From Oceanispirochaeta sp. (GTDB taxonomy: Bacteria > Spirochaetota > Spirochaetia > DSM-2461): 64,000 nucleotides of DNA. Of the stretch, positions 20,416 through 36,708 are shown piece after piece. The notes below the pieces were generated by a model, which worked only from the letters and a program-made list of their open reading frames with translations, was not told the DNA's origin and searched no databases. The stretch's first letter is position 1, and every line of letters begins with the position of its first letter. A program made the translations under genes and the position numbers. The DNA is taken from contig CAXXOA010000001.1 in the NCBI GenBank assembly GCA_963666275.2, forward strand, positions 192,001-256,000. Direction: 5' to 3'.

Positions 20416-20958
20416 TCATTCATAGGCGAAGATATTAAAATATTTAATGATCTCCGTTACGGGGGTAATTTTATGGGGTATGGAAGATTTAAAATAGAGG
20501 CCCTCACCGGATTTCACTATATAGGTGCTAGTGCCTATTGAGCACTGGGCTTCTCCCTCCAGTATGTATATGAATTCCTCGCCGTCATGCTGAAGGACTT
20601 TTTCTATGAATTCTTCCCTTCTGACTTCGTAGTAGAACGGTTGGAGTTTTTTGCTGTAGAAGTTGGCCGCAATAGGGACGTAAGAGTAACCTCTTTCAGT
20701 AGGAACAAGCATATTCTTGAGCTTATCCAGTTCAAAAGTCACAATATCCTGTTTGTTACTGGGTTCTTCCAGTAGTTCTGTTACCGTGCTTTCGAGTACT
20801 GTCGCTATTTTGTAGAGCGTGGATATCGGAGGCGTGACTTTCCCGTTTTCTATTTTTGAAAGTAGACTTTTTGAAAATCCCGCGAGATCCGCTGTTTCCT
20901 GCAGGGTATATCCTTTATTTGATCTTGCTCTTTTTATCCGTATTCCCAATTCTTTCAT
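20416..20958 (-). CDS. XRE-HTH + cupin regulator, copy 1
   Basis: LQETADLAGFSKSLLSKIENG...PPISTL; cupin HDGEEFIYILEG...PH. Confidence 0.93.
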   Translation of the reverse strand: MKELGIRIKRARSNKGYTLQETADLAGFSKSLLSKIENGKVTPPISTLYKIATVLESTVTELLEEPSNKQDIVTFELDKLKNMLVPTERGYSYVPIAANFYSKKLQPFYYEVRREEFIEKVLQHDGEEFIYILEGEAQCSIGTSTYIVKSGEGLYFKSSIPHKITPVTEIIKYFNIFAYE

Positions 20959-21147
20959 TACTATAAATATACGTGTGTGTTGAATTTTGCTCAACAACTA
21001 TTTTAATATATTGAAACATTTTTTGTTATATCAAACGCCTGGTACACTTTTTTGTGCTGTTGGTTGAATTCAGATCTACTTTTTCAAGGTCTGGTGCAAC
21101 TGCATAACCTCCTGATCTTCTCGGATGATCAGGAGCGGACCGGAGGT

Positions 21148-22428
21148 TTAACCCGCAAGAAGGCCGGGAAGCCACAGGGACAGTTCAGGAATATAGGTAA
21201 TCAGCATAAGCAATAGGAACATGCCGATAAAGAAGGGTATAAATCCCCGGAATGCCTGCTTCATATTAATTCCCGCAATTGAGCAGCTCACAAACAGACA
21301 GGATCCCACCGGTGGTGTGAATAGTCCTATCCCCAGGTTTGTTACCACAATAACCCCGAAATGGATTGGATCCACACCAAGATGAAATGCTATGGGTGCA
21401 AGGACAGGGACAAATATGATCATAGCCGGAGTCAGGTCAAGGATGGCTCCTGCCACCAGAAGGATCACGTTGAAAAACAACAGAATCAGAACCTTGCTGC
21501 TTGTAATGCTCAGAAGAAATTCAGATATGATTATGGGAAGTCTCTGACTGGTAATGATCCAGCTGAATACATTTGCCGTACCTACCATCAGCATGACCAT
21601 GCCTGTGATTTTTATGGTTTCCACGAACATCGCCGGGAGATCTTTCAGTTTAATTTTCTTGTAGACGAAAAAACCGACGATAAAGGAATAGATTACAGCC
21701 AGTACCGCAGCTTCTGTAGGTGTTACTATCCCCGAAATAATCCCGCCCAGAACAATGACAATCGACATTAACGGGATAATACTGTCAAGTGTAATGAGTA
21801 CCGCTTCTTTGAACGTGTAGGCTTTATCCCGCGGATAATCTCTTTTCTGGGAAATGAGACCGCTGATAAACATCAGAACGAGTCCCACCAGCAGGCCGGG
21901 AATGGCTCCGGCAATGAAAAGGGTTCCTACGGATTGATTCATGAGTATTCCGTAAATAACCATGGGAATGCTGGGGGGAATCAGTATTCCTATGACAGAT
22001 GAAGTGGCAGTTACAGATACCGAGAAATCTTTATCGTATCCTTTCTTTGTCATGGAAGGAATCAGTATCGAGCCGATGGATGAGGAATCTGCTGTGGCTG
22101 ATCCTGTTATTCCCGCAAACAGCATGCTGACAACGATGTTTATGTAGGCAAGCCCCCCTTTGAAACGCCCGACCACTATAGAGGAGGCTTTGATCATTCT
22201 GTTGGAGATCCCGCCGCTGGCCATGATTTTTCCAGCCAGGATAAAAAACGGTATAGCTAACAGGGTGAATGAGTCCAGGCCTGAATAAAGCCTCTGCGGG
22301 ATCATTATGAGAGGTGTTATATTGGTTGCTTTCAGCCAGATGGCAGATGAAATACCCAGGACGAATCCCACCGGGACAGAAAGAATGACAAAAAGCAGAA
22401 AGCAGATGAAAAGCAATCCGAGCATCAT
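21148..22428 (-). CDS. dctM: TRAP transporter large permease
   Basis: LLAIPFF, GSATAD, IPPSIP, TPTEA, TPPVG. Confidence 0.95.
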   Translation of the reverse strand: MMLGLLFICFLLFVILSVPVGFVLGISSAIWLKATNITPLIMIPQRLYSGLDSFTLLAIPFFILAGKIMASGGISNRMIKASSIVVGRFKGGLAYINIVVSMLFAGITGSATADSSSIGSILIPSMTKKGYDKDFSVSVTATSSVIGILIPPSIPMVIYGILMNQSVGTLFIAGAIPGLLVGLVLMFISGLISQKRDYPRDKAYTFKEAVLITLDSIIPLMSIVIVLGGIISGIVTPTEAAVLAVIYSFIVGFFVYKKIKLKDLPAMFVETIKITGMVMLMVGTANVFSWIITSQRLPIIISEFLLSITSSKVLILLFFNVILLVAGAILDLTPAMIIFVPVLAPIAFHLGVDPIHFGVIVVTNLGIGLFTPPVGSCLFVSCSIAGINMKQAFRGFIPFFIGMFLLLMLITYIPELSLWLPGLLAG

Positions 22429-22931
22429 GATTGAGTTTCTCCTATCTGGTAATCGAGTACAGCAAAGACAATATGGAACAGAGAATAGACGGCCATAAGA
22501 AAAAAGGCAAAGGGGATAACCGAATAGACCACGCCCATGGATATTCTTGAAACCGGGGCGACCTGCTTAGCTGCAATTCCCAGCAGTTTAAGTCCCTGTG
22601 CGGTAACAACAATACTGAAAACGAAAATGAGAACTTGTATAAAGATATTCAGTATCAGAACCCCAAGGGGGCTCAGTTTTTCCGAAATGATATCAAGGCG
22701 TATATGGCTGTTGTCTTTCATGACCATGGCTGCCCCCAGGAAGGATATCCAGATGAACAGAAAACGGCTGATTTCATCGCTGAAGGCGATGGGGAACTGA
22801 AAGACATATCTGGATAGAATCTGTATTGTCGTAAATAGTATGACTATCAGGAACAGGAATACGGCAACAATATTTACCGTAACATCCATTATATCCCTGA
22901 CTCTTTTTATGATGGGTCGAATCCTTTCCAT
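22425..22931 (-). CDS. dctQ: TRAP transporter small permease
   Basis: SRY...EISRFLFIWISFLGAA...HIRLD. Confidence 0.93.
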   Translation of the reverse strand: MERIRPIIKRVRDIMDVTVNIVAVFLFLIVILFTTIQILSRYVFQFPIAFSDEISRFLFIWISFLGAAMVMKDNSHIRLDIISEKLSPLGVLILNIFIQVLIFVFSIVVTAQGLKLLGIAAKQVAPVSRISMGVVYSVIPFAFFLMAVYSLFHIVFAVLDYQIGETQS

Positions 22932-22985
22932 TTTTACTCCTTGAAAAGCTGGACGGGAGCCTGTTGAGGCTCCCTTTCGGTTGTA

Positions 22986-23978
22986 TTATTGAGTAACTTT
23001 CATTGCCGCATCAATAATTTCCTTCCCAACCAGATCGGCATTCTCATAGATAATATCCTTTACTGCCATTCTGAAATCTGAAAGGTCCAGATCATTTATT
23101 TTCATACCTTCCGCTGTAAGATCTCCCAGGACACTTTCTTCGAGTTCATTCCAGAGCTCCCATTCGTATTTCTGAGTCTCCTGTGCTGCGGCTTTTACTG
23201 TTTTTTTCTGATCATCCGTAAGGGAATCAAAAACCGGTTTGCTGATGATGACCACATTCAAGTCATAGAAATGGTTTGTCATGGAATAGTAATCGGATAC
23301 TTCGTAAAATTTCTGGGCAAACAGGGCAACGGGAGGTTGTTCTGCTCCGTCGACAACCCCCTGTTTCAGGGCGGAATACAGTTCGCTGTAGGCAATGGGG
23401 GTAGCCAGGGCGCCCAGGGTGTTTATCGCTTCAATCATGATGGGATCATTCATAACCCGGATTTTCAGACCTGAAAGATCTTCCAGGGATTCTATCGGTC
23501 TTTTTCCGTTGAAGATACTTCGGAATCCCGTATCGTAATAGGCCAGAAGTTCAAATCCCGCATCATTAAGGCTGGACTGCAGTATTTCGCCGACTTCTCC
23601 CTCCAGAGCGGCTTTTACTTCGTCTTTGGAGACAAATACATAGGGGAGGCTGAAAATGCTGAATTCCGGACAGAAGGAACTCAGGGCTGCGGCTGATACT
23701 TTTGCAATTTCTATAGTACCGCTCTGCATACCTTCAAGAGATTCCCGTGCTCCTCCCAGCTGGCTGTTGGGGAAAACCTGAACTTCTAGATCTGATGACT
23801 CGTTCTGGTTTATCAGATCCGCAAAATAATTGTCTGCCTGTACATGGGGATTGTCTTCGGATACCTGGTCCGAGAACTTCAACAGCACTTTGCTCTGTTC
23901 TGATGACCCGTTGGCAAACAGCCCGGTTGCGACTAATGCCATTACCAAAAGGACGCCAAAAAAAAATTTCCTATTCAT
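22986..23978 (-). CDS. dctP: TRAP transporter substrate-binding protein
   Basis: FPNSQLG, GLKIRV (carboxylate-binding Arg), LKQGVVDGAE. Confidence 0.95.
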   Translation of the reverse strand: MNRKFFFGVLLVMALVATGLFANGSSEQSKVLLKFSDQVSEDNPHVQADNYFADLINQNESSDLEVQVFPNSQLGGARESLEGMQSGTIEIAKVSAAALSSFCPEFSIFSLPYVFVSKDEVKAALEGEVGEILQSSLNDAGFELLAYYDTGFRSIFNGKRPIESLEDLSGLKIRVMNDPIMIEAINTLGALATPIAYSELYSALKQGVVDGAEQPPVALFAQKFYEVSDYYSMTNHFYDLNVVIISKPVFDSLTDDQKKTVKAAAQETQKYEWELWNELEESVLGDLTAEGMKINDLDLSDFRMAVKDIIYENADLVGKEIIDAAMKVTQ

Positions 23979-24402
23979 CAATATCTCCTTTTTTAGTGGT
24001 CCAACCACTTTGATTGTATATTAATTTCCCTTTTTGTATTTACCAGGTTATCCAGTTTCAATCACTGTAAGCATTCGCCCGGGATCTTCTAAAGGAATCC
24101 CATCTATCACCGGTGAAACTGTTATTGAGAATCTCTTCTCAACTTCCCGCAACCGCCTGTCATATTTGGATGAAAAAAATCGTAATATTCGGTACTTTAA
24201 GGTTTCATGTGCGGTTGAATTATGGTTTATTTAATTGATTTTATTTCAACAACAGGAAGATAGTCAAACCTAATTATGAAAAAATATTTGAGTATAAAAT
24301 TATAAATATATTTCCTGTGAAATTAAATTAGTTTTATATAAATACTTATATTAAAATAATATAGAATTTTTATTTTGAGAGGGTTTTAATTGTTTCAATA
24401 TA

Positions 24403-24419
24403 ATTCAACAATGTTGAAT
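24403..24419. promoter_or_regulatory. Palindromic operator ATTCAACA-A-TGTTGAAT
   Basis: Perfect 8-1-8 inverted repeat upstream of the TRAP1 operon; the core recurs at 31956 and 31799. Confidence 0.7.
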
Positions 24420-24466
24420 AGTAAGAATCTTTTGGTCTGTTTGGTTTAGTGGTTTATCCTGTTCTT

Positions 24467-25009
24467 TTACTCATAGGCAAAAATATTGAAATATTTTATG
24501 AGATCCGTAAGAGGGGTAATTTTGTGAGGTATCAGGGAATTGAAGAACAGACCTTCTCCAGATTTCACGATATATGTATTGCTGCCGATAGAGCACCTGG
24601 CTTTACCGTCCAGAATGAATATGAACTCCTCTCCTTCATGCTGAAGCACTTTCTCAATGAATTCCTCACGGCGGACCTCGTAGTAGAAGGGCTGAAGCTT
24701 TTTACTGTAGAAATTGGCGGCGATCGGTACAAAAGAGTATCCCCGCTCTGTGGGGACAAGGAGGCTTTCGAGTTGATCGAGCTTGAAGGATACAATGTCC
24801 TGTTTGCTGCTCGGTTCCTCCAGAAGTTCTGTAAGAGTGCTATCCAGGACTGCGGCAATCTTATGGAGTGTTGAAATCGGGGGAGTGACTTTTCCGTTTT
24901 CAATTTTAGAGATAAGGCTTTTGGAATACCCAGCCAGATCTGCTGTCTCCTGCAGGGTATATCCCTTTTTTGATCTTGCTTTTTTTATGCGTATGCCGAT
25001 TTTCTTCAT
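24467..25009 (-). CDS. XRE-HTH + cupin regulator, copy 2
   Basis: Close paralogue of 20416-20958, with shared strings such as PIAANFYSKKLQPFYYEVRREEFIEKVLQH and IKYFNIFAYE. Confidence 0.93.
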   Translation of the reverse strand: MKKIGIRIKKARSKKGYTLQETADLAGYSKSLISKIENGKVTPPISTLHKIAAVLDSTLTELLEEPSSKQDIVSFKLDQLESLLVPTERGYSFVPIAANFYSKKLQPFYYEVRREEFIEKVLQHEGEEFIFILDGKARCSIGSNTYIVKSGEGLFFNSLIPHKITPLTDLIKYFNIFAYE

Positions 25010-25120
25010 AGTTTTCCGGAATGTATTTTGCCGATAGGGAGCCTGCAGCCCGATTGATTCCAATAGAGTCTGTTCTCCCGTCGGATGAATATCAGTCCGA
25101 CGGAAGAATGCTGTATCTCT

Positions 25121-26404
25121 CTATTTCCAGTGCTTTTCCATTCTTTTTCTGAGGTCTTTTTTATACTCTTCCCAGTCGGATATAGGCTCTTTTGCCAGTC
25201 CTTCATCACAGGCTGCTTTGGCAACAGCAACAGCTTCCCATTCGATGACTCTGGGATCGAAGGGTTTGGGCACTACGTAGTCTCTGCCGAATGTAAAATC
25301 CCGGCCGTAGGCTTTTCTGACTTCATCCGGTACAGGTTGTTTCGCCAGCTCCGCCAGGGCCCTGGCGGCTGCCATTTTCATTCCTTCGGATATCTTTTTT
25401 GCCTTTACATCCATAGCTCCCCTGAAGATAAAGGGAAATCCCAGGACATTGTTTACCTGGTTGGGGAAGTCGCTTCTTCCTGTTCCCATTATGATGTCAT
25501 CCCGTGTGGCATGAGCCAGGGCCGGATCGATTTCGGGATTGGGGTTTGCCATAGCGAAAATAATAGGTTTGGGTGCCATGGATTTGATCATGCTTTCGGT
25601 CAGGCAGTCAGCTACGGACAGTCCGATAAAGACATCCGCTCCTTCGATGGCTTCTTCTAGGGTTCTCTTTTCAGTTTCCGCAGTAAATTCTTCCTTTTCC
25701 GGAGTCATTTTTCTGGTTCGTCCCTTATAGATCACCCCGGCTGAGTCCAGTAGGAGCATGTTTTCTTTTTTGATCCCTGCGGCTAAGAACATTTTTGAAC
25801 AGCTGATACCGGCAGCACCGGCTCCGTTTACCACAATTTTCAGCTCGTCCAGTTTTTTACCCTGCACTTCTGCTGCATTGATCAGCCCAGCCGTCGCAAT
25901 GATCGCCGTTCCATGCTGATCGTCATGAAATACGGGGATATTGCATTTCTCAATGAGAGCCTGTTCTATTTCAAAGCATTCGGGAGAACCAATATCCTCC
26001 AGATTGACTCCCCCGAAAGTGGGCTCCATGGTTTTTACTATTTCAATAATTTTTTCCGGATCTTTCGTGTCCAGTTCTATATCAAAGACATCAATATCGG
26101 CAAATCTTTTAAAAAGGACACCTTTGCCCTCCATGACAGGTTTGCTGGCCAGGGCTCCTCTGTTCCCCAGTCCGAGGATAGCAGTTCCGTTGGACACGAC
26201 GGCCACGAGATTGCCCTTGTTGGTATAACGGAAGGCATCGCTGGGATTTTCCGCTATTTCAAGAACGGGATGTGCCACTCCGGGAGAATAGGCCAGTGTC
26301 AGGTCGTCGGAAGTTCTGCATGGCTTGGAAGCTATGACTTCCAGTTTTCCCGGCTGGTTGTTCTGGTTGTGGTATTCCAGTGCCTTCTTTTTCATGTCGT
26401 TCAT
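25121..26404 (-). CDS. Malic enzyme (MaeB N-terminal type, no PTA domain)
   Basis: AYSPGVA, NGTAILGLG, PVMEGKGVLFK, FHDDQHGTA, GRSDFPNQVNN. Confidence 0.95.
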   Translation of the reverse strand: MNDMKKKALEYHNQNNQPGKLEVIASKPCRTSDDLTLAYSPGVAHPVLEIAENPSDAFRYTNKGNLVAVVSNGTAILGLGNRGALASKPVMEGKGVLFKRFADIDVFDIELDTKDPEKIIEIVKTMEPTFGGVNLEDIGSPECFEIEQALIEKCNIPVFHDDQHGTAIIATAGLINAAEVQGKKLDELKIVVNGAGAAGISCSKMFLAAGIKKENMLLLDSAGVIYKGRTRKMTPEKEEFTAETEKRTLEEAIEGADVFIGLSVADCLTESMIKSMAPKPIIFAMANPNPEIDPALAHATRDDIIMGTGRSDFPNQVNNVLGFPFIFRGAMDVKAKKISEGMKMAAARALAELAKQPVPDEVRKAYGRDFTFGRDYVVPKPFDPRVIEWEAVAVAKAACDEGLAKEPISDWEEYKKDLRKRMEKHWK

Positions 26405-26491: not shown

Positions 26492-27262
26492 TTACAGAGC
26501 CGTCATTCCTCCGTCTATAACCAGTTCCGATCCTGTCATGAAAGAAGATTCCTCCGATGCCAGAAACAGAATCCCTGCTGCAATTTCAACCGGCCGAGCA
26601 AATCTGTTTAAAGGGGTCTGGCTGAGTCTTTTTTCTCTGATTTCCGGATCGGAATGGATGTCTTTTGTCATCGGAGTGTCCGTAAAGCCGGGAAAAACGG
26701 CATTTATCCTGATATTAGATGAGGCATACTGTATAGCCGCTGTACGGGAAAGGGCTCGGCAAGCCCCTTTACTCGCCGAATAGGAGGTCGTTTTCTGGGT
26801 TCCCACCAGGCCGTATACGGATGAGACATTGACGATAGAACCTCCTCCCGTTCTGACCATTTCGGGGATGACATGCTTCATCCCCAGAAAAACCCCGGTA
26901 CTGTTGATGCTGAATACTTTATCCCAGGCATCCAGGGTTGTCTCCGTAAGAGCTGGTCTTACCAGCGGGCCGCCCACGCCGAAAGCGTTCACCAGTACAT
27001 CGATCCGTCCGAATCTTTTTACCGATTTTTCCACGGCCTGAATCCAGTTCTGTTCCGCAGAAGCGTCGCAGTCAAAGAATTCTGAAGGAATTCCGGTTTC
27101 CGTAAGTTCTTCCGCTACCTTCGTCCCTTCAGGTCTTTTGATATCCAGAATCGCTATCCCGTCAGGATTCTCTGTGGAAAAGAGGCGGCATGTTTCGGCG
27201 CCAATGCCTGTAGCCCCTCCCGCGACAAGAATGATTTTGCCAGTTAATCTTCCGTTCTTCAC
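26492..27262 (-). CDS. SDR-family oxidoreductase
   Basis: GGATGIG, NVSS, YSASK; GTG start. Confidence 0.9.
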   Translation of the reverse strand: MKNGRLTGKIILVAGGATGIGAETCRLFSTENPDGIAILDIKRPEGTKVAEELTETGIPSEFFDCDASAEQNWIQAVEKSVKRFGRIDVLVNAFGVGGPLVRPALTETTLDAWDKVFSINSTGVFLGMKHVIPEMVRTGGGSIVNVSSVYGLVGTQKTTSYSASKGACRALSRTAAIQYASSNIRINAVFPGFTDTPMTKDIHSDPEIREKRLSQTPLNRFARPVEIAAGILFLASEESSFMTGSELVIDGGMTAL

Positions 27263-29171: not shown

Positions 29172-29210
29172 AAAGTCTCCTCCTGACATTTATTAACAAC
29201 TAAAACTCGT

Positions 29211-30491
29211 TTAGTTAGAAACCAGATTGGGGATGAACGTAACGATACCCGGTATGTAGGTTATGATGAACAGGGTTACGATCATGATGATAATGTTGGG
29301 CAGTATGGCTTTGCTGATCTGGGCGACCGAAAGTTTGGATATACTGCATCCCACATATAGGATATTGCCCACGGGGGGGGTGATCAGGCCTATACAGAGG
29401 TTGACGATCATGACAACTCCGAAATAGACAGGGTCCAGACCGAACTGGGTCGTTATCTTGATAAGAATCGGTCCCATGATCAGGAGAGCCGGAGTCAGAT
29501 CGAGAACGCAGCCGATCATCAGCAGAAGTATGTTGATGAAGAACATGAGCAGGATAGGACTGTCTCCTGCCAGAGACAGAAGAGATCTGGACATGAGAGC
29601 GGGAATCTGGGCTGTGGTGATGCTGTAGGCTACGGCCGTGGCGGCGCCGCAAACCAGCATAACCACAGCTGAGTTTTTGGCCGTTTTTACAAGAATGGAT
29701 CTCAGCATGCTGATCTTCAGGTCCTTGTAAACAAACAGTCCGATGAAAAAAGCGTACATCACAGCGATAACCGCTGCTTCGGTCGGCGTGTAAGCTCCTC
29801 CGATAATGCCTCCCAGGATTATCAGCGGAAGCAGAAGAGCCCAGAATGCGCTTTTGGCGGCTTTTCCGAGCTGTCTTAAGTTCAGCTTTCCTTCGGCTTT
29901 GTAATTTTTCTTTTTAGCATGAAAAAACCATCCGAGCATCAATCCGAATCCGATGAGTATTCCCGGGACGATTCCTCCCAGAAAGAGCTTTACAATGGAG
30001 ACGTTGGCAATAACGCCAAAGAGGATCATGGGGATGCTAGGGGGAATTATCGGTCCGATCGTCCCGGCGGCGCAGAAAAGGGCTGTCGCCTTTTCCGGGT
30101 CGTAATCTTCTTTTTCCATAACCGGATAAAGGATAGAGCCGATGGCGGAAGTGTCTGCAACAGCTGAACCGGAGACTCCGGCGAAAAGCATGCTGGCCAT
30201 GACCGTGACATAGCCCAGGCCGCCTCTGATATGGCCAAGCATGGCTCTTGCAAAGTCGACGATTCTTCTGGATATTCCACCGGCGTTCATGAGTTCTCCT
30301 GCCAGCAGGAAGAATGGGACAGCCATCAATGGAAAATTGTCGATCCCTCTGACCACGCTCTGTGTGAGCAGTATGGGAGACAGGTTTCCCATGGCATTCA
30401 TGAGGACACCTCCCGTCAGAATCAGAGAAAACGAAATAGGGATGGATAATGCGATTAATGCGAAAAGGGTCACCAGGAAGAGCGCTAGCAT
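29211..30491 (-). CDS. dctM: TRAP transporter large permease
   Basis: FPLMAVPFF, SGSAVAD, IPPSIP, TPPVG. Confidence 0.95.
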   Translation of the reverse strand: MLALFLVTLFALIALSIPISFSLILTGGVLMNAMGNLSPILLTQSVVRGIDNFPLMAVPFFLLAGELMNAGGISRRIVDFARAMLGHIRGGLGYVTVMASMLFAGVSGSAVADTSAIGSILYPVMEKEDYDPEKATALFCAAGTIGPIIPPSIPMILFGVIANVSIVKLFLGGIVPGILIGFGLMLGWFFHAKKKNYKAEGKLNLRQLGKAAKSAFWALLLPLIILGGIIGGAYTPTEAAVIAVMYAFFIGLFVYKDLKISMLRSILVKTAKNSAVVMLVCGAATAVAYSITTAQIPALMSRSLLSLAGDSPILLMFFINILLLMIGCVLDLTPALLIMGPILIKITTQFGLDPVYFGVVMIVNLCIGLITPPVGNILYVGCSISKLSVAQISKAILPNIIIMIVTLFIITYIPGIVTFIPNLVSN

Positions 30492-30985
30492 AGGACGGCC
30501 TCCTTCCGGGCGGAGATGATGTCGGTAAATGAGTTGGCTATCTTTCCAAGGGCCATGATGACCAGGCAGACCCCTGTAATAGGAACAATCATATAGATTA
30601 TGCCGTAGGGTATGCCGCTGGCGGGAGCTGTCCAGCCGCTCCGGAGAGTGTTTCCTGTAAGAAGGATCCCTCCGTAGGTGAGCAGGGAAAGCGCTGCCGC
30701 AGACAGGATGTAGGAAAGCAGTACAATGTAGCGGCTGGCTTTTTCGGGAAGAGCCTTGACCAGTACGTCCAGGCCCAGGTGGCCGTCATCCGTATAGGCC
30801 AGAACAGCTCCGATAAATACCACGAATATCAGGAGAAACCTGGATCCTTCTTCTGTCCAGGGAATGGAAATGTTTAAAAAATAGCGGGAAAGGACATTCA
30901 GAAAAACAATGAGTGTCATCCCGGTCATGAGAACAGCCAGAACAGTTTCCAGGAAAAATTCGAGTTTCCGGATTATCTGTTTCAT
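30485..30985 (-). CDS. dctQ: TRAP transporter small permease
   Basis: NVLSRY...WTEEGSRF...HLGLD. Confidence 0.93.
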   Translation of the reverse strand: MKQIIRKLEFFLETVLAVLMTGMTLIVFLNVLSRYFLNISIPWTEEGSRFLLIFVVFIGAVLAYTDDGHLGLDVLVKALPEKASRYIVLLSYILSAAALSLLTYGGILLTGNTLRSGWTAPASGIPYGIIYMIVPITGVCLVIMALGKIANSFTDIISARKEAVLC

Positions 30986-31022: not shown

Positions 31023-31691
31023 TCACCCTGAGATCCAGTTTCTGTCTCCATAGGAAGCGCTCCAGGCTTTCTGGAAGGAGTCCCAGCGGTCCTGAGTAAA
31101 GTTGTTGTTGAGAAACTGTTTCCATAGTCCGTAGGCGCAGGTGGATTCATCTGCTCCGTAGATGTATCCGTCCACTATCTGGCTGATGCTCCTGGCTGCG
31201 GTCATTACTTTGGTATTGAGTCCTCTTTTTTTGTATACCTCAACAGTGTTCTGCAGCAGATCTCCTACGGGTTGTTCGCTTACCTCTCCCAGCAGACCGA
31301 CGAATATGGCTACATGGTCTACGCCCACTGCGCCGACGGCAATTGCCTCAATGACCGAATGAACACAGGTTGCACAGACCGGAATTCCTGCCTGTTTCAG
31401 CAGTTTCATACCTCCGATTCCGTTTTCATTGGTGATGACTTTTACGGTGATATTGTCAGATACGGAAGCCAGGGCTTTCCCTTCCTCCAGGATTTCCCGG
31501 GGGGAGTCTGATATCACCTGAGCGAATACGGGAAGGTCGGGCACCATGCGGCATATTTCGGTTAATGCATCCTTGAAATTGTATTTTTCTTTTGCGACCA
31601 TCGCAGGATTCATTGTTATACCGCCCAGATGGGCCCACTCTTTTGCTTCTTCGATTTCGGATAAATTGCAGGAATTTAAAAACAGCCTCAT
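31023..31691 (-). CDS. Transaldolase/fructose-6-phosphate aldolase family protein with an atypical active site
   Basis: 222 aa; GITMNP, VFAQV, and Schiff-base Lys in NITVKV. Several canonical residues are substituted. Confidence 0.85.
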   Translation of the reverse strand: MRLFLNSCNLSEIEEAKEWAHLGGITMNPAMVAKEKYNFKDALTEICRMVPDLPVFAQVISDSPREILEEGKALASVSDNITVKVITNENGIGGMKLLKQAGIPVCATCVHSVIEAIAVGAVGVDHVAIFVGLLGEVSEQPVGDLLQNTVEVYKKRGLNTKVMTAARSISQIVDGYIYGADESTCAYGLWKQFLNNNFTQDRWDSFQKAWSASYGDRNWISG

Positions 31692-31791: not shown

Positions 31792-31821
31792 ATTATATTT
31801 CAACAAAATTGAATCTGTCAA
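31792..31821 (-). promoter_or_regulatory. Leftward promoter with the operator in the spacer
   Basis: On the minus strand, TTGACA (31816-31821) and TATAAT (31792-31797) bracket TTCAACAAAATTGAA (31799-31813). Confidence 0.72.
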
Positions 31822-31948: not shown

Positions 31949-31977
31949 TTGACAGTTCAACAATGTTGAATCAAAAT
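31949..31977 (+). promoter_or_regulatory. Rightward promoter with the operator in the spacer
   Basis: TTGACA (31949-31954), palindrome TTCAACAATGTTGAA (31956-31970), CAAAAT (31972-31977). Confidence 0.72.
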
Positions 31978-32032
31978 ATATCTCATAGATTTGTTATATG
32001 AATGATCCACAATAAAAGGGAGATAGGAACCA

Positions 32033-33382
32033 ATGGATATTGAAAAAATGATTGCCAATGCGAGAACTGCCCAGGCTCAGCTGGAAACATACAGCCAGGA
32101 GGAACTGGATCTGCTGGTAAAAAGGATTGCCAAGGTTGTTTTTGATAATGCGGAAGTCTTTGCAAAGATGGCTGTAGAGGAATCGGGAATGGGCACCTAT
32201 GAATCCAAGGTGCTTAAGAAAAAGGGCAAATCGAGAATCCTCTGGCATAGTCTGAAAGGAAAAAAGTCGGTGGGTGTTTTATCGGATGATCCAGAAACAG
32301 GGATTATCGAGATTGCAAAACCGGTGGGGATAATCGGTGCTATTCAGCCCTGTACCAATCCTATTGTAACTCCCATGGCCAATGCCATGAATGCTGTGAA
32401 ATGCGGCAATGCCATCATTATTGCTCCCCATCCCCGGACTGTTAACTGCACTCAGGTCTATGTGGACATGATCTATAAAGCCTGGGAAGGTCTGAAATAT
32501 CCGGAAAATATCATACAGTGTTTTGTTCCCCGTAATGTTGAGGAAACCCAGACCCTGATGAAAGCGGTCGATGTTATTGTTGCCACAGGTGGACCGGGAA
32601 TGGTGAAAGCTGCCTATTCCAGCGGTAAACCTTCATTCGGAGTGGGACCTGGAAATGTACAGTGCATTCTGGATCGGGACATCTCAATTCCCGAGGCGGT
32701 GGAAAAAATTATTACAGGCCGTACTTTTGACAACGGCATTATCTGCTCGGGAGAGCAGACTATTATCTATCCCGGGGAATTAAAAGATTCACTTTATGAG
32801 GAACTGGGCAAGGCGAACTGCATAATCCTTACAGAGCAGGCAGATATCACAAAGCTGGAAAGGGTTCTGTTTGCTGATGGGCATATCCATAAGGATGCTG
32901 TTGGAAAAAGCCCGGTCTATCTGGCAGAGAAAGCGGGAATTTCCGTAGATCCCGCCACGAAAATTCTCATGATCCCTGTGGATAAGGAAAATACATCCAG
33001 CCTGTTCCGGAAAGAGAAGATGTTTCCGGTCATTGCTCTTTTCGAATACGACGATTTTCAGGAGGCAGTTGATACAGCGGTTTACAATCTGAATATAGAA
33101 GGAAAAGGCCATTCGGTTTCCATTCATTCCCATAACCCGGAAAATATAACTCTTTTTGGAAAACAGGCTCCGGTGAGCAGAGTCGTGGTAAATGCCGTCG
33201 CGGCAACTACGGCCGGTGGAGCTTTTACCAACGGACTGAATCCCACCAGTACTCTCGGATGCGGCTCCTGGGGAAATAACAGCATTTCGGAAAACTTTTA
33301 TTACAAACACTGCATGAACGTCACAAGGATTGCCAGACCCATCGACGGGAATATCCCGTCAGATGATGAACTCTGGTCTTAA
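32033..33382 (+). CDS. CoA-acylating aldehyde dehydrogenase (succinate-semialdehyde dehydrogenase / succinyl-CoA reductase type)
   Basis: PCTNP, ATGGPGMVKAAYSSGKP.FGVGPGN, DNGIICSGEQ (catalytic Cys), TLGCGSWGNNSISEN. Confidence 0.9.
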   Translation: MDIEKMIANARTAQAQLETYSQEELDLLVKRIAKVVFDNAEVFAKMAVEESGMGTYESKVLKKKGKSRILWHSLKGKKSVGVLSDDPETGIIEIAKPVGIIGAIQPCTNPIVTPMANAMNAVKCGNAIIIAPHPRTVNCTQVYVDMIYKAWEGLKYPENIIQCFVPRNVEETQTLMKAVDVIVATGGPGMVKAAYSSGKPSFGVGPGNVQCILDRDISIPEAVEKIITGRTFDNGIICSGEQTIIYPGELKDSLYEELGKANCIILTEQADITKLERVLFADGHIHKDAVGKSPVYLAEKAGISVDPATKILMIPVDKENTSSLFRKEKMFPVIALFEYDDFQEAVDTAVYNLNIEGKGHSVSIHSHNPENITLFGKQAPVSRVVVNAVAATTAGGAFTNGLNPTSTLGCGSWGNNSISENFYYKHCMNVTRIARPIDGNIPSDDELWS

Positions 33383-33391
33383 GGAGTTTCT

Positions 33392-34549
33392 ATGAATTTG
33401 ATGGAATACAAAGCTCAGGAGCTTTTTGGAAGATTCGGTCTTCCCGCCAATAGGGGAGTCCTGGTTCAATCAGTGGAAGAGCTGGCAAAGACCATGAACA
33501 GCCTGACTTACCCCCTTGTTCTGAAGGCCCAGGTGGAGACGGGAGGCCGGGGAAAGGCAGGCGGTGTCAGGATTGTAAAAAACAAGGACAAACTGCTTGA
33601 AGAAGCGGATGCCATTCTGAATCTCAATATAAACGGCTTTGATGTAAAAAAGCTTTATGTTGTGGAAGCTCTGAATTTTCAGAGGGAAATGTATGTCAGT
33701 ATCATTTTCGACCGGGCCGAGAAGGTGCCTCTTCTGATCTTCTGCGGAAACGGCGGGGTGGATATCAATGAGATCGCCGAAGAGCACCCGGAAGATATTA
33801 TCCGCTATCACCTGATGCCGGGCATGGGAATCCGGGGATACATGACCGATTATATTCTGGATAAAAGCGGTATGAGCCGCAATTTGAAGGAGTCTCTTCA
33901 GGATATTCTGGAAAAACTCTACGCGCTCTTTCTGGAAAAAAATGCCCTCCTTGTGGAAGTGAATCCTCTGGTTCTGACAGATAAGGGTGAACTTGTGCTT
34001 CTGGACGGAAAAATCACGGTCGATGACAACGCCCTTTTCAGGCATGAAGATCTCCTGGCGTATCGGGACGAAATGGAGGACAATCCTCTGATCCTCGATG
34101 CACGGGCTAACAGGTTCCTTTATATACCCATTGAAGACGCTGGTACGATCGGTGTCATCAGTAATGGTTCAGGTATGATTATGTCCAGTATCGATCTGAT
34201 CAGCCGGAAGAATCTGACTGTGAAGTGCGCCCTTGATCTTGGCGGCGGCGCCACGGCGGAAAGGATCAAGGAAGCCGTCAGGATTGTATTAAGCAACCCC
34301 GATGTGAAACTTCTTTTTATCAATATTTTCGGCGGCATAACCAGATGTGATGAAATCGCCAGGGGAGTCAAACTGGCATATGCGGAGGCCGACTATACGA
34401 TCCCCCTCGTTCTGCGTCTGGAAGGGACCAACAAGGAAGCCGGCCTTGAGATTATAGAATCTCTCCCTGTCAGTTTTCAACTTTCTGACGATCTGGTAGA
34501 CGGCGTAGAGAAAATTGTGGAAATAAGCGCAGTGGGGGAACAGCTATGA
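33392..34549 (+). CDS. ADP-forming succinate/malate-CoA ligase family, beta subunit
   Basis: [47 protein letters not shown]. Confidence 0.93.
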
Positions 34550-35421
34550 GTGTACTGGTAGATGAAAAAACGCGTCTGATCGTTCAGGGCATCACAGGAA
34601 GGGAAGGCCGTTTCCATACGGAGCAGATGCTGGAATACGGAGTTGCTGTTGTTGCGGGCGTGACCCCCGGCAAAGGCGGTACTTCCGTTGAGGGAGTACC
34701 TGTCTACAATACGGTCCGGGAAGCTATGGAACAGCATGATGCCAATGCCGTGGTGGTGTTTGTTCCTCCGAAGGCAATGAAAACGGCGGCGCAGGAGTCT
34801 ATAGAAACGGGCGTCCCTCTTGTTATTACCATTGCAGAGGGTGTTCCTGTTCTGGATATGTATTATCTGTCCCATCTGGCTAAGCAGAGGGGGGTAAGGC
34901 TCATCGGGCCGAACTCTTTCGGGATTATTTCTCCGGGAAAATCCAAAGCGGGATTTATGTCCCATCGGATCTTTTCTCCCGGCAGAGTGGGGATCCTTTC
35001 CAGAAGCGCCACCAATGCATATGAAACCGTATTCAGGATGACCAATAACGGTATAGGTCAGTCCACGGTTATCGGTGTCGGCGGGGATATGATCCCGGGG
35101 AGTACTTTTTCTGATCTTCTGCCTCTGCTTGAGGAGGATGACCAGACCGACCTTATTGTCATTATCGGTGAGATCGGCGGCAGTGAGGAAGAAAAGGCCG
35201 CAGAGTATATCAAATCTCATGTAACCAAGCCGGTGGTGGCTCTTATAGCCGGAAAAAATGCCCCGAAAGGGAGAAGTATGGGACATGCGGGAGCTATCGT
35301 TTCTCCCAATGGAGAAGGAAGCGCCGAAATGAAAGAGGCGAAACTGACAGAGGCAGGAGTCAGGATCGCAGAAAGTACGACGCATATTACGGATCTTGTG
35401 AAAGAGATCCTGGCCGGCTGA
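34546..35421 (+). CDS. ADP-forming succinate/malate-CoA ligase family, alpha subunit
   Basis: [30 protein letters not shown] (phospho-His). Confidence 0.94.
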
Positions 35422-35460
35422 ATAAGCCGGTATTGAACACAGTAAATTAAGGAAGGTTCC

Positions 35461-36708
35461 ATGACGATTGATATCCCTTACAAAAAAACGGTTTTACCCA
35501 TAACTCTCCCGGATAGTATTGATTTTCAATGTCTGGAGCCTTCCTTTTTTCCTCTCGAGACCAGCCTTGAGCAGATGATCGAAGATTCTCTTGAATCTCC
35601 TGTTTCCAGCGTTCCGTTCAGGGAATTCCTGAGAGGTTCGGGAGACCTACTGGTCATAGTCAATGACGGAACCAGACCGACTCCGACAAGGCTTATACTT
35701 GAAGAGATTGCGGATGATCTGGAAAAGTATGGTGCACAGTTCATTATCGCCACGGGAGTGCACAGAGCTCCTACGGATCAGGAGTTCCGGTATATCTTTG
35801 GTAATACCTATGAGCGGTTCCGGGAAAGGATCCTTGTTCATGATGCCAGAAAAACAGAAGATCTGGAGTATTATGGCGAATCAAAGCAGGGAACACCGAT
35901 TTATCTCAATAAACATTGCGGTCTTTCCGGAAAAATCCTGGTAATAGGATCGGTGGAACCCCACTATTTTGCGGGATATACAGGAGGGAGGAAAGGTTTT
36001 TTCCCGGGGATAGCCGGTTTCGAAACCATCGAAGCCAATCACAAACTCGCCCTTGATCCCTCTGCAAAAACCCTGAAACTGAAAGGGAATCCCGTCCATG
36101 AGGATATGATGGACTGCCTGAAATGCCTTGAAGGCAAAGAGGTTTTCGGCATTATGACAGTGCTGGATAAATTCCATCAGATATATGCAGTCTCATCAGG
36201 TGACCTGATAGAGTCCTTTTACGGGGCAATAGATAAGGCAGATGAAATTTTTGTTACTCCTGTAGAGAAAAAAGCGGATATTGTGATTTCCTGTGCAAAG
36301 TACCCTATGGATGTGGATCTTTATCAGTCTCAGAAAGCAATCGATAACGGGAAACTGGCATTGAAGGAGGGAGGGATCCTCTATGTGGTATCCTCATGCA
36401 ATGACGGTTTGGGAGAGAAAGCTTTCTCCCGTCTTCTCAGCTCTTCTGATTCTCCTCAGGGAGTTTTGGAGCATATCGAAAAGGAGTATCGTCTCGGGTA
36501 TCACAAAGCTGCCAAAATGGCTGAAGTGTTCACCTGGGCGGATGTCCGCCTGTATTCCGATTTGGATGATCAGACAGTCCGGGATCTGTTTATGACTCCC
36601 CTGGAAGATCTTCAGAGGGATATTCTGAAATCCATAGAAGACTCAGGTGAAAATGTTTCAGTTATTTTCATTCCTGACGGATGCGTGACTGTTCCATACA
36701 GCAATTAG
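35461..36708 (+). CDS. larA: LarA-family nickel-pincer 2-hydroxyacid racemase/epimerase
   Basis: NDGTRPTP, ATGVHR, EPHYFAGYTGGRK, DLYQSQKA. Confidence 0.9.
   Translation: MTIDIPYKKTVLPITLPDSIDFQCLEPSFFPLETSLEQMIEDSLESPVSSVPFREFLRGSGDLLVIVNDGTRPTPTRLILEEIADDLEKYGAQFIIATGVHRAPTDQEFRYIFGNTYERFRERILVHDARKTEDLEYYGESKQGTPIYLNKHCGLSGKILVIGSVEPHYFAGYTGGRKGFFPGIAGFETIEANHKLALDPSAKTLKLKGNPVHEDMMDCLKCLEGKEVFGIMTVLDKFHQIYAVSSGDLIESFYGAIDKADEIFVTPVEKKADIVISCAKYPMDVDLYQSQKAIDNGKLALKEGGILYVVSSCNDGLGEKAFSRLLSSSDSPQGVLEHIEKEYRLGYHKAAKMAEVFTWADVRLYSDLDDQTVRDLFMTPLEDLQRDILKSIEDSGENVSVIFIPDGCVTVPYSN

Follow-up and report, generated by a model that had tools for sequence, protein, structure and literature searches.

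What could a spirochaete gain from a cluster that combines a transaldolase-like enzyme with an acyl-CoA module, a LarA-family racemase and a malic enzyme? The genes lie in the window, a 64,000-nucleotide stretch of DNA from Oceanispirochaeta sp., and the cluster probably imports a sugar acid, cleaves it with an unusual aldolase and converts the four-carbon piece to malate and then pyruvate, with formation of ATP. The specific route that we favour, at a probability of about 0.55, would split a C7 deoxy keto-acid into a C3 ketone and D-malic semialdehyde, the latter passing through malyl-CoA to D-malate plus ATP, then to L-malate and pyruvate. Its reactions, their directions, the chain length and the isomer are inferred from which genes are present, how they are conserved, the clades they belong to and their site residues. 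The route would break down a seven-carbon deoxy sugar acid without a kinase and, if true, would be an undescribed carboxylate counterpart of the known sulfosugar pathways.

The genes named in a preliminary description of this interval are all in place, on the minus strand in the left arm and the plus strand in the right, and no kinase family matched among the 16 genes, in agreement with its statement that the cluster lacks a sugar kinase:

20416..20997, minus strand: XRE-cupin (PuuR-like) regulator 1, 83% identical to regulator 2
21148..22428, minus strand: TRAP large permease M1 (TIGR00786, over cut-off)
22425..22931, minus strand: TRAP small permease Q1 (PF04290)
22986..24008, minus strand: TRAP binding protein P1 (TIGR00787)
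24467..25063, minus strand: XRE-cupin regulator 2, final gene of the aldolase operon
25121..26404, minus strand: malic enzyme, a dedicated third copy (PF00390/PF03949)
26492..27262, minus strand: SDR2, with orthologues (58-60%) in two of the 21 long aldolase loci described below
27277..28101, minus strand: SDR1, polyol-dehydrogenase-like (best model L-iditol 2-dehydrogenase, 235 bits, cut-off 338)
28164..30985, minus strand: second TRAP system P2-M2-Q2, not conserved with the aldolase
31023..31691, minus strand: divergent TAL/FSA class I aldolase, TAL* (PF00923)
32033..33382, plus strand: CoA-acylating aldehyde dehydrogenase (ALDH) of SucD (succinyl-CoA reductase) type, with Cys238, Lys66, Ser239 and Thr392
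33392..34549, plus strand: ADP-forming acyl-CoA ligase beta subunit, SucC (TIGR01016, 403 bits, cut-off 376)
34546..35421, plus strand: ADP-forming acyl-CoA ligase alpha subunit, SucD (TIGR01019, 369 bits, cut-off 353)
35461..36708, plus strand: LarA-family racemase (best model LarAH6/MAR, 365 bits, cut-off 500)

A sulfatase operon adjoins the cluster at 14757-19195. The earlier picture of two divergent operons with one shared operator, one TRAP transporter and one XRE regulator has to be revised, as the interval contains two TRAP systems, two XRE regulators and three operator copies. Regulator 2 starts 57 nt past the malic enzyme gene, and the TRAP system at 21148-24008 sits with the other XRE gene behind its own predicted promoter. 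The control elements are:

24238..24267, minus strand: promoter-like site of the P1-Q1-M1 unit (TTGACT-18-TAAAAT), a consensus match only, aligning with the aldolase promoter
24404..24418, no strand: operator palindrome copy 1, exact match
31792..31821, minus strand: predicted consensus promoter of the left operon (TTGACA-18-TATAAT), its spacer holding operator copy 2
31799..31813, in the left promoter spacer: operator copy 2, two mismatches
31949..31977, plus strand: promoter-like site of the right operon, its spacer holding operator copy 3
31956..31970, in the right promoter spacer: operator copy 3, exact

The palindrome, TTCAACAnTGTTGAA, is exact at 24404 and 31956 and has two mismatches at 31799; the window holds four matches against 0.33 expected, a number reached in 0 of 100 shuffles, and the fourth, at position 3045, is not part of the cluster. 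An alignment of region 24010-24460 to the divergent region 31692-32032 gives 69% column identity and places both promoters and operators in register. Judged by this alignment, the control region is duplicated, giving the cluster its three operators; together with the separate promoter, this argues for at least three transcription units.

TAL* was found at 47 loci, of which 21 extend over 10 kb or more (the long set). The aldolase is conserved together with ALDH, SucC and SucD in six of these 21, in varying gene order and with orthologue identities of 52-60% (ALDH), 50-56% (SucC) and 71-81% (SucD). As the genes are real and co-conserved, the outline of the preliminary description holds, and the lack of joint conservation that it named as a refutation is not seen; the four-carbon dicarboxylate residues and racemase signature discussed below also support its interpretation. 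ALDH/SucCD are absent from the other 15 long loci, and in three of the 21 an aldehyde:ferredoxin oxidoreductase near TAL* replaces them, as expected if the product of TAL* is an aldehyde for oxidation. Malic enzyme occurs in three long loci and MAR-type LarA in two, the pair jointly in only one, and L014 is the only other locus with all five parts (TAL*, ALDH/SucCD, SDR1, malic enzyme and MAR-type LarA). Both LarA and malic enzyme stand with ALDH+SucCD in the window cluster, in L014 and in L081, L082 and L083. In six more loci, which lack TAL*, an E1 complex (E1/E2) comes after ALDH-SucC-SucD; three of the six also encode a malic enzyme and a malate racemase over the curated cut-off (543-555 bits against 500). 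From these gene arrangements, the ALDH-SucC-SucD back end is a module usable behind different front ends.

Import of the acid would be the task of P1-Q1-M1. This distal TRAP system at 21148-24008 is the one conserved with the aldolase, and not the system adjoining it, a point missing from the preliminary description. Orthologues of P1 (50-67%) occur in 18 of the 47 loci and those of M1 (66-75%) adjoin TAL* in 15, frequently in the order P1-aldolase-Q1-M1; one or the other flanks TAL* in 20, and Q1 orthologues (42-48%) are found in loci having M1 orthologues. XRE-cupin regulator 1 has one orthologue (62%), adjoining TAL* in L003. For P2-M2-Q2, the top identities in related loci are 36% (P2) and 44% (M2). 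Both DctP proteins keep the KIR arginine noted earlier (KIR at residues 182 and 177), and their solved relatives presumably bind sugar-acid-type ligands. No solved relative of P1 is near enough to name its ligand, which is most likely the aldolase substrate or a reduced precursor of it. SDR1 has sorbitol dehydrogenases and acetoin reductases among its nearest solved relatives and would then oxidise the carbon beside the terminal CH2OH, producing a 6-keto acid, the ketose for the aldolase. Its orthologues (60-62%) are in five of the 21 long loci, every one with ALDH+SucCD, and in none of the six E1-type loci.

TAL* scores 138 bits, short of the FSA/TalC cut-off of 246, and its predicted structure has the TAL fold (pLDDT 91.5, TM 0.85-0.90). 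Its site residues, conserved across 42 homologue rows, are Lys84 (Schiff base), Asn6, Gln58, Cys106, His111, Ala128, Phe130, Leu133, Arg167, Arg202 and Trp203. The phosphate-binding Arg135 is missing (Leu in 40 of 42 rows), Arg167 is kept in 40 of 42, and position 6 is Asn in 39 of 40 aligned rows. By these residues (Asn6, Gln58, Phe130 and no Arg135), TAL* defines a small uncharacterised subfamily of TAL/FSA. Gln58 and Phe130 occupy what we take to be the positions of the usual acid/base residues, so TAL* has neither, and its chemistry may differ from that of both TAL and FSA. Cleavage through the Lys84 Schiff base would release dihydroxyacetone or hydroxyacetone and malate semialdehyde. With 2,4-dihydroxybutyrate as the entry substrate, as once suggested, the aldolase would have nothing to do.

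The donor pocket (Cys106/Ala128) is FSA-like, and FSA accepts hydroxyacetone and glycolaldehyde; its Asp6, which binds the 3-OH and 5-OH of fructose 6-phosphate and whose replacement abolishes cleavage of that sugar, is Asn in TAL*. These features would suit another entry to the same back end via malate 4-semialdehyde, in which TAL* either cleaves a six-carbon deoxy-uronate to free glycolaldehyde or cleaves 3,7-dideoxy-6-keto-heptonate (ring-opened dehydroquinate) to free hydroxyacetone. A glycyl radical enzyme (L025), a glyoxalase (L003) and aldo-keto reductases near TAL* agree with it; yet quinate- and shikimate-pathway families had no match among the scanned neighbours, 5-deoxy-D-glucuronate presumably has the wrong C2/C3 geometry for FSA, and DhaKL in one locus favours dihydroxyacetone. 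We regard such an entry as quite unlikely, and lean towards D-malic (1-)semialdehyde (3-hydroxy-4-oxobutanoate) over the 4-semialdehyde implied earlier.

For our preferred seven-carbon route, the substrate with D-fructose geometry would be 2-deoxy-6-keto-heptonate, a carboxylate look-alike of sulfofructose. Such a substrate would necessarily give D-malate, which would account for a racemase acting after the ligase and before a malic enzyme of ordinary type. A natural source such as 2-deoxy-D-manno-heptonate, which is KDO minus C1, is a guess, and against the route, no abundant natural C7 deoxy acid was identified. In addition, the inositol route to D-malic semialdehyde in E1-type loci requires IolD, which is over cut-off in only one of the six genomes, and several TAL* neighbours point to fully hydroxylated six-carbon 5-keto acids, which would give tartronate semialdehyde instead. 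TAL* would in that case split 5-keto-D-gluconate or D-fructuronate into dihydroxyacetone and tartronate semialdehyde, leading to tartronyl-CoA and then tartronate plus ATP, with LarA and malic enzyme serving a side substrate. The neighbours in question come from L012, L014, L019, L028 and L033: IolO-like epimerases adjoining TAL* in L019 and L028 (239-248 bits, cut-off 300), a gluconate-5-dehydrogenase-like SDR (307, cut-off 369) and Zn-dehydrogenase genes in L033, GarL/HpaI-like aldolases in both L028 and L033, and ketose 3-epimerase-like genes. Six-carbon keto acids are abundant, and the many solved relatives of both DctP proteins that we take to bind sugar acids would fit them. However, tartronate is achiral and unfit for a racemase or for malic-enzyme decarboxylation, yet both enzymes accompany ALDH+SucCD, and the C4-dicarboxylate contacts are kept in ALDH and ligase, making this proposal an unlikely one.

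The acylating dehydrogenase would convert the semialdehyde to malyl-CoA plus NAD(P)H, and the SucCD-like ligase would free malate while forming ATP from ADP and Pi. The best solved match of ALDH is C. kluyveri SucD (8CEI, 441 bits, against 300 for AdhE), and it retains the equivalents of Lys70, Ser243 and Thr395, the first two of which hold the distal carboxylate in that enzyme; Lys66 and Ser239 equivalents are present in 11 of 11 cluster ALDHs. In the ligase, the alpha subunit (His247, Tyr159; motifs GPNSFG and SRSATN) is 71-81% identical to cluster orthologues and 48-53% to TCA copies, while the beta clade (GIT; SNGSG in place of VNGAG) splits from TCA SucC with support of 100/100. By clade and site residues, ALDH and ligase are thus a group apart from TCA-cycle SucCD with succinate-type rather than sulfonate-type residues, and the specificity proposed earlier is borne out in part: the prediction favours a four-carbon dicarboxylate and not a sulfonate. 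The clade-specific ligase changes adjoin residues binding phosphate and the C1 carboxylate, and would fit a hydroxyl near the activated end. SucD and MtkAB are weakly active on malate/malyl-CoA, the sequence aldehyde to acyl-CoA to acid plus ATP has precedent in SqwD/SqwKL and HpfX/HpfYZ, and carnitine catabolism proceeds from malic semialdehyde to D-malate and pyruvate.

This architecture matches sulfo-TAL/HpfXYZ and sulfo-TK/SqwDKL, the latter reported in Spirochaetes, and with the adjoining sulfatase operon it could indicate that TAL* is a sulfofructose transaldolase, that ALDH and ligase yield sulfolactate plus ATP and that LarA racemises sulfolactate. We consider this the most improbable reading: TAL* scores 81 bits with BmSF-TAL and 100 bits with ordinary transaldolases and is thus no nearer to the former, the ligase has the succinate C4-binding Tyr and GI(T) motif and lacks the His/GIN signature of HpfYZ, ALDH is under the SauS cut-off (397 against 600 bits), sulfoquinovosidase, SQ isomerase, TauE and SuyAB families had no match among the scanned TAL* neighbours, and malic enzyme would be left without a role. 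It is also very improbable that the right arm is a stand-alone succinate-semialdehyde/succinyl-CoA module beside an unrelated left arm. The genome has no other SucC/SucD match, both subunits exceed the succinate-CoA ligase cut-offs and succinyl-CoA reductase is nearest to ALDH; but the TCA-type SucCD of relatives form a separate clade beside sdhAB, sucAB and citrate synthase, one operator motif is common to both arms, and TAL* recurs with right-arm genes in varying order.

In the favoured route LarA would convert D-malate to L-malate. Its best solved match is Mar2 (6D6Z), it has all NPN-binding and catalytic residues (Arg72, His101, His168, Lys178, His194), and the published malate-racemase (MAR) signature, His348/Lys349, is present, as predicted for the malate racemase proposed earlier. 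With a score of 365, however, LarA stays under the MAR cut-off of 500, and it shares only 31-36% identity with the E1-linked MARs. In the 97% complete genome, larB, larC and larE had no family match over cut-off, nor did spirochaete LarC/E/B queries give a tblastn match at E<1e-4; larB is found in only two of five searchable genomes with a MAR-type LarA in such a cluster. The racemase step may therefore be without its cofactor. The last step would be conversion of L-malate to pyruvate and CO2 by malic enzyme, which shares 84-85% identity with two further copies in the genome and is therefore probably a standard L-malate enzyme.

Tartrate, too, is epimerised by characterised MARs, at about 0.5-4% of the rate with malate. 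LarA could accordingly be a tartrate epimerase acting after tartrate semialdehyde, with malic enzyme taking meso- or D-tartrate to hydroxypyruvate. The aldehyde would arise either when TAL* cleaves a non-deoxy 6-keto-heptonate or when the E1 complex acts on a 5-keto-hexonate. We judge this version rather unlikely, because the MARs tested show only minor activity on tartrate, the window malic enzyme nearly duplicates the two other copies in the genome and the window cluster has no hydroxypyruvate-reductase-like gene. On the other side, no deoxy substrate would be needed, IolG, IolN-like and IolM-like genes are present with no match to IolE in the E1-type loci, and D-2-hydroxyacid dehydrogenases are common neighbours. 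A separate malic-enzyme clade, which would also suit tartrate, takes this place in six related loci (L006, L012, L014 and L081-L083); its members are 35-42% identical to the window copy and 67-86% identical to one another.

The 16 genes at 20416-36708 of the window constitute a real, conserved and rare candidate pathway, and we put the probability that cleavage is followed by acyl-CoA-linked ATP formation at about 0.8. All of the genes are intact, and they belong to the families named for them in the preliminary description. Those that carry the argument are the following.

21148-24008, distal TRAP system (P1-Q1-M1)
25121-26404, minus strand, malic enzyme
28164-30985, second TRAP system (P2-M2-Q2), next to the aldolase gene
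31023-31691, minus strand, divergent class I aldolase of the TAL/FSA superfamily ("the aldolase"), heading the left operon
32033-33382, plus strand, acylating aldehyde dehydrogenase (ALDH), followed on the same strand by SucC and SucD
35461-36708, plus strand, LarA

The minus-strand run from the aldolase to the regulator gene XRE2 has intergenic gaps of -7 to 87 nt, and the plus-strand run from ALDH to LarA has gaps of -4 to 39 nt. P1-Q1-M1, followed by XRE1, forms a separate unit 458 nt away from XRE2, and the XRE1 and XRE2 proteins are 83% identical. The palindrome TTCAACAnTGTTGAA occurs in three copies within the cluster; at up to two mismatches it has four matches in the window against 0.33 expected, a number reached in 0/100 shuffles. 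Two of the copies lie in the spacers of divergent promoter-like sites (31821-31792 and 31949-31977), found in a scan whose overall yield was not above chance (29 sites vs 24 +/- 5). The region upstream of P1 can be aligned with the entire divergent region. The earlier proposal of a single shared operator was not borne out, being ruled out by the three operator copies and the duplicated control region. Based on the shared palindrome, the aligned upstream regions, the similarity of the XRE proteins and the gap layout, we infer that the cluster is a single regulon with three or more units that arose partly through duplication. The duplicated control region also keeps a rightward promoter-like site with an exact operator (24375-24418) facing the 3' end of XRE2; no plus-strand gene lies behind this site, which may be a vestige or may give rise to antisense RNA.

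The aldolase belongs to the TAL/FSA class I superfamily by its PF00923 score (85 bits, cut-off 27), its modeled transaldolase fold (pLDDT 91.5) and Lys84, present in 42/42 rows of the family alignment. It shares the fold (TM 0.85-0.90), the Schiff-base lysine, Thr26, Asn28 and Thr108 with the small transaldolases of T. maritima and T. acidophilum and with E. coli FSA, but differs from them in its low identity (20-31%), in the changes of Asp6 to Asn and Arg135 to Leu, in the combination of Gln58 with Phe130, and in the invariance of Cys106, His111, Arg202 and Trp203. True transaldolases carry Glu60 and Phe132 with a phosphate site at Arg135, the arginine of the FVGR motif being the phosphate binder; the usual pairs are Glu/Phe in TAL, with Glu as the acid/base, and Gln59/Tyr131 in FSA. 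Gln58 and Phe130 of the aldolase match neither pair. Among 42 near-complete rows, counted without two frameshifted rows of locus L046, Lys84, Gln58, Cys106, Thr108, His111, Ala128 and Phe130 are invariant, with the search patterns having covered positions 26-31 and 126-130, so that conservation there, including the Phe130 count, is biased. Phe130 is also found in 18/18 rows of a further alignment, Asn6 in 39/40 aligned rows, Leu133 in 40/42, Arg167 in 40/41 and Arg202/Trp203 in 40/40.

Gln58 and Leu133 set the aldolase apart from true transaldolases, as Phe130 and Asn6 do from FSA with its tyrosine acid/base and Asp6, and its score on the FSA/TalC model TIGR00875 is 138 bits, under the cut-off of 246. 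Judged by these sequence features, the aldolase belongs with neither the housekeeping TALs nor the FSAs. Leu133 aligns at the place of the FVGR arginine, and the substrate is therefore probably not phosphorylated, which agrees with the lack of a kinase gene. In FSA, Asp6 binds fructose 6-phosphate at its 3-OH and 5-OH groups, and Asp6 variants lose cleavage of this compound (PMC6099348). An E60Q/F132Y switch is named in a PDB title, and Cys106 and Leu133 resemble the engineered FSA changes L107C and R134V, likewise named in PDB titles.

The aldolase subfamily comprises 18 proteins at 47-91% identity; a 50%-representative library held three clusters above 200 bits, the next scoring 163, and an ESM Atlas search returned generic TAL/FSA clusters only. 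We recovered 47 distinct loci (15 genomes, 31 metagenomes and one relative), a count made without L031 (a duplicate of L011), L048 (a generic TAL, 29%) and L001/L002 (the locus of the cluster itself and one contained within L051). Among the named hosts are spirochaetes, KSB3/Vecturithrix, NC10, Eisenbacteria and Nitrospirota MAGs. The subfamily occurs in 1/60 relatives and 0/10 congeners. A phylum-wide search for the ligase clade was positive in 0/400 genomes beyond the source genome (1/401 with it), order-level searches were positive in 3/7 and 2/13 cases, and plasmid searches gave generic SucD and FSA only.

The best match of the ALDH is C. kluyveri SucD (441 bits; AdhE 300), whose Lys70 and Ser243 hold the distal carboxylate of the C4-dicarboxyl-CoA (PMC10249356). 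The cluster enzyme shares the fold of that protein (8CEI), its catalytic cysteine (Cys238) and its distal-carboxylate residues (Lys66, Ser239), placing it with the SucD-type acylating semialdehyde dehydrogenases; the Lys70/Ser243 equivalents are kept in 11/11 cluster ALDHs. On the SauS/SqwD sulfoacetaldehyde dehydrogenase model NF047625 (cut-off 600) it reaches 397 bits, and two other ALDHs of the source genome reach 519-520 bits.

SucC (403 bits, cut-off 376) and SucD (369 bits, cut-off 353) pass the succinyl-CoA synthetase cut-offs. The ligase nevertheless departs from the TCA enzyme, whose copies adjoin sdhAB/sucAB/gltA: GPNCPG, SRSGTLTYE and VNGAG are absent along with the TCA context, and its clade has its own motifs GPNSFG, SRSATN and SNGSG. 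These border phosphate- and C1-carboxylate-binding residues, a placement suggestive of a substituent close to the activated end of the substrate. Succinyl-CoA synthetase holds the C4 carboxylate with Tyr and GIV, and the sulfonate ligase HpfYZ uses His and GIN (PMC11489063). The cluster ligase has Tyr159 and GIT, in contrast to the alpha His and beta GIN of the 3-sulfopropionate-CoA ligase, and scores 281 bits against the cut-off of 604 on the malate-CoA ligase model NF010647 (MtkAB).

His348/Lys349 of LarA align with Trp358 of lactate racemases and the residue that follows it, and are identical in Mar2; His/Gln with Lys at LarA1 positions 358/359 is the malate racemase (MAR) signature (PMC11770544). 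Arg72, His101, His168, Lys178 and His194, expected of a MAR dependent on the nickel-pincer (NPN) cofactor, are all present; on the MAR model NF052593 (cut-off 500) LarA scores 365 bits. Two other malic enzymes of the source genome are 84-85% paralogues of the one in the cluster, and six related loci carry a malic enzyme of another clade. Because the sequences thus indicate two independent recruitments, they argue for malate as the acid formed. Against this reading, MARs also act on tartrate.

In a search of relatives, SucC had five matches in the 49-56% range and a larger set in the range 29-40%. The six loci taken from the 36-40% group adjoin genes of the TCA cycle, with sdhAB, sucAB and citrate synthase confirmed in L086 and sucA in L089, and in a tree of 16 SucC proteins they part from the ten cluster proteins with support of 100/100. 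In six further loci (L081-L084, L098/99 and the short L096) ALDH-SucC-SucD is followed by a conserved E1 alpha (68-74%), then, contig permitting, by E1 beta and E2, and the aldolase is absent. L081-L083 carry, further along, a malic enzyme and a MAR over the cut-off (543-555 bits vs 500). Their upstream genes vary: inositol dehydrogenase, TIM barrel and M24 hydrolase in L082 and L084, an IolN-like hydrolase and an isomerase in L083, and a UxuA-like dehydratase with an RraA-like aldolase in L098. We read this as one aldehyde-oxidizing back end with interchangeable C-C cleaving front ends, of which the E1/E2 clade is probably one; alternatively, the E1 complex may act as a 2-oxoacid or pyruvate dehydrogenase. 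The clade is PDH/acetoin-dehydrogenase-like and always lies directly after ALDH-SucC-SucD, with genes for inositol or sugar acids upstream. IolD is over the cut-off in only 1/6 genomes with E1-type loci, which makes inositol-derived 2-deoxy-5-keto-gluconate no more than a possible common substrate for them and also weighs against the malate route.

Returning to cleavage followed by acyl-CoA-linked ATP formation, a C4 acid semialdehyde and a C3 donor would require a C7 keto acid. Worked out from Fischer projections, 2-deoxy-6-keto-heptonate with D-fructose geometry, a carboxylate look-alike of sulfofructose, would yield dihydroxyacetone and D-malic semialdehyde, and from the latter D-malate; a racemase would therefore be needed ahead of the L-specific malic enzyme. 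Exactly this geometry would result from KDO minus C1 (2-deoxy-D-manno-heptonate) oxidized at C6, one hypothetical source. A second is 3-deoxy-D-arabino-heptulosonate (the preliminary description guessed at a 3-deoxy-heptonate or -heptulosonate), which would fit too and give the 4-semialdehyde if the two SDRs reduced C2 and oxidized C6. The C3 ketone might be phosphorylated by DhaK homologues elsewhere in the source genome (48-49%). Malate is probably the acid formed, at slightly better than even odds by the C7/C3 route and only with a small chance by other entry chemistry. For any single named substrate the case is at best doubtful.

The fullest version of the scheme, taken jointly, we consider unlikely: the aldolase would be a new class I enzyme with an acid/base other than Glu/Tyr (invariant candidates His111, Cys106 and Glu182), opening a "carboxy-TAL" pathway that degrades a C7 compound derived from keto-deoxy acids of bacterial or plant cell walls (e.g. 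decarboxylated KDO) and feeding a mobile D-malic-semialdehyde-to-pyruvate module with substrate-level ATP, in which the racemase is active without LarBCE through a scavenged or other cofactor.

MARs need LarB, LarC and LarE for synthesis of their cofactor, and in the source genome (97% complete, 3 contigs) none was over the cut-off; tblastn with confirmed spirochaete LarC, LarE and LarB gave no match at E<1e-4. Among five MAR-bearing genomes larB is present in two, being found in G051 and G058 and not in G039 and G061. The racemase could lie idle, rely on scavenged cofactor or work with a different one. The source genome has two LarA genes, and homologues with intact NPN-binding residues where larB was not found comprise the LarA of the window, that at L091:9899-11227, and those of G039 and G061.

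Gene neighborhoods bear on both transport and the route. P1 orthologues (50-67%) adjoin the aldolase in 18/47 loci, P1 or M1 orthologues do so in 20/47, and the aldolase is frequently inserted between P1 and Q1. No orthologue of P2 or M2 accompanies it in the 47 loci (best 36% and 44%), leaving the adjoining P2-M2-Q2 unsupported as cognate importer. Neither DctP protein has a close solved relative, and ligand assignment on that basis was dropped; SDR1, SDR2, E1 alpha and a DHDPS-like neighbor had generic solved matches only.

With genes in related loci called by a simple script that short or overlapping genes can escape, ALDH, SucC and SucD orthologues lie in 6/21 aldolase loci of at least 10 kb (L006, L010, L011, L014, L033 and G045, L010 and G045 being one genus). 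The same 21 loci hold SDR1 in five cases, malic enzyme in three, aldehyde:ferredoxin oxidoreductase in three, MAR-type LarA in two, SDR2 in two, and DhaKL inside the cluster in one. L014 has the aldolase, TRAP1, SDR1, ALDH, SucCD, LarA and malic enzyme in one run. A further four pairings of aldolase and ALDH agree in the length of their longest contig, which supports co-occurrence only indirectly. All named hosts of the ALDH/ligase pair are spirochaetes, as are those of the closest named homologous clusters. Against one common route, 15/21 long loci are without the back end, and several loci have neighbors suiting hydroxylated C6 5-keto acids, which would yield tartronate semialdehyde; the aldolase orthologues (43-58%) may not all share one substrate. 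Extending six flanks revealed no diagnostic gene among 45 scanned proteins, 38 of them from 76 unassigned flank ORFs. A HIT-family hydrolase near the aldolase in 16/47 loci (L006, L008, L014, L033 and 12 more) gave no substrate clue and is missing from the window cluster; the source genome's 39% homologue lies elsewhere, adjoining a D-lactate-dehydrogenase-like gene. At L025:4682-10623 a PflD-like glycyl radical enzyme and its activase sit directly upstream of the aldolase and an aldehyde:ferredoxin oxidoreductase downstream, and four NC10-type loci (L008, L017, L020, L032) have a Group-22 NPN-dependent isomerase (490 bits in L020, cut-off 400) and an aldo-keto reductase upstream.

In its proposed design the cluster parallels the ATP-yielding variants of sulfo-TAL and sulfo-TK (PMC12890257), with the individual proteins distinct from SqvA, SauS, HpfYZ, MtkAB, true TAL and FSA. 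Both the sulfo-TAL pathway of Enterococcus gilvus (SqvA; HpfX/HpfYZ; PMC11489063) and sulfo-TK (SqwD/SqwKL; PMC12890257) combine a CoA-acylating aldehyde dehydrogenase with an ADP-forming SCS-family ligase for substrate-level ATP, and sulfo-TAL also begins with TAL-family cleavage of a non-phosphorylated anionic ketose. The window cluster differs in its succinate-type Tyr/GIT in place of His/GIN, its SucD-like ALDH and its separate aldolase subfamily; its acid is apparently metabolized on by racemase and malic enzyme rather than excreted. The aldolase scores 81 bits to the sulfofructose transaldolase SqvA, against 100 for T. maritima TAL, and is set apart from it by sequence closeness and gene context. 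No sulfoquinovose entry genes were seen among scanned aldolase neighbors, nor any such entry or sulfonate export genes in the cluster comparison.

Carnitine breakdown supplies malic semialdehyde and D-malate as natural intermediates (PMC11353897). The lower L-carnitine pathway of Acinetobacter baumannii likewise runs from malic semialdehyde through D-malate to pyruvate and CO2; there, however, a monooxygenase supplies the aldehyde, malic semialdehyde dehydrogenase is non-acylating without any gain of ATP, and a decarboxylating D-malate dehydrogenase acts on D-malate directly, where the window cluster would combine aldol cleavage, an ATP-forming CoA-ester step, and a racemase with malic enzyme. 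SucD and malate thiokinase accept malyl-CoA/malate in the synthetic MtkAB/SucD route (PMC7341569, PMC5481828); SucD works reductively on succinate and the engineered route has residual activity only, whereas the window cluster would run oxidatively on natural malate semialdehyde. LarA resembles LarAH5, LarAH6/Mar2 and LarAH62 (PMC7583248, PMC11770544) in catalytic and NPN-binding residues, His/Lys signature and malic enzyme neighbor; unlike them it falls below the family cut-off, lacks a detected larBCE in its genome, and would receive its D-malate from an internal source instead of serving D-malate uptake. The literature searched, with most subscription papers outside it, held no account of a TAL-initiated route via malyl-CoA and a malate racemase.

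If true, this reading extends the "aldehyde to acyl-CoA to acid plus ATP" design of sulfosugar breakdown to ordinary carboxylates, gives malate racemases, whose in vivo role is named an open question in PMC7583248, an internal D-malate source, and offers a testable job for an uncharacterized TAL/FSA subfamily of spirochaetes, KSB3 and NC10-class bacteria. Engineering of 2,4-dihydroxybutyrate has lacked both natural malyl-CoA reductase/ligase activities and a natural aldolase that acts on unphosphorylated substrates.

Elsewhere in the source genome (G000), an inositol cluster (L104:9781-19845 and L109:851-5685; G000:C2, about 1887780-1902700) encodes a long transaldolase, a SauS-like acylating ALDH, an MmdA-like carboxyltransferase, IolG, an IolB-like protein, IolD and IolE; iolC was not found in the genome. 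It is a candidate kinase-free route from 2-deoxy-5-keto-gluconate through malonate semialdehyde and malonyl-CoA to acetyl-CoA, for which the literature searched gave no description, and looks like an internal analogy to the aldolase route in cleaving the C6 homologue without a kinase. A 43% homologue of its transaldolase lies inside the aldolase cluster of L010/L051. At L105:5094-12678 (G000:C2, about 848000-855700) a second SauS-like ALDH and MmdA-like pair stands behind GlcD-like FAD and Fe-S oxidoreductase genes and looks like another malonate-semialdehyde-producing route.

Several further features were seen in the window.

2980-11823, plus strand, LacI, sugar ABC transporter, SDR, Zn-dehydrogenase, D-psicose 3-epimerase (over cut-off) and FGGY kinase
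12000-14408, minus strand, 802-aa ORF
14757-20403, plus strand, TctCBA transporter, sulfatase and GntR/LacI hybrid regulator, a separate unit without an operator copy
37238-39422, minus strand, and 60267-62257, plus strand, two Gfo/Idh/MocA and TIM-barrel pairs, the TIM-barrel proteins 82% identical
about 49270-50276, a further IolG over cut-off

By its gene content the first is a rare-ketose or polyol operon; the operator match at 3045 (1 mismatch), inside its LacI gene, is probably due to chance. From its translation, the 802-aa ORF is an apparent fusion of a GNAT-like N-terminal half with a PLP-dependent 8-amino-7-oxononanoate/serine-palmitoyltransferase-like half.
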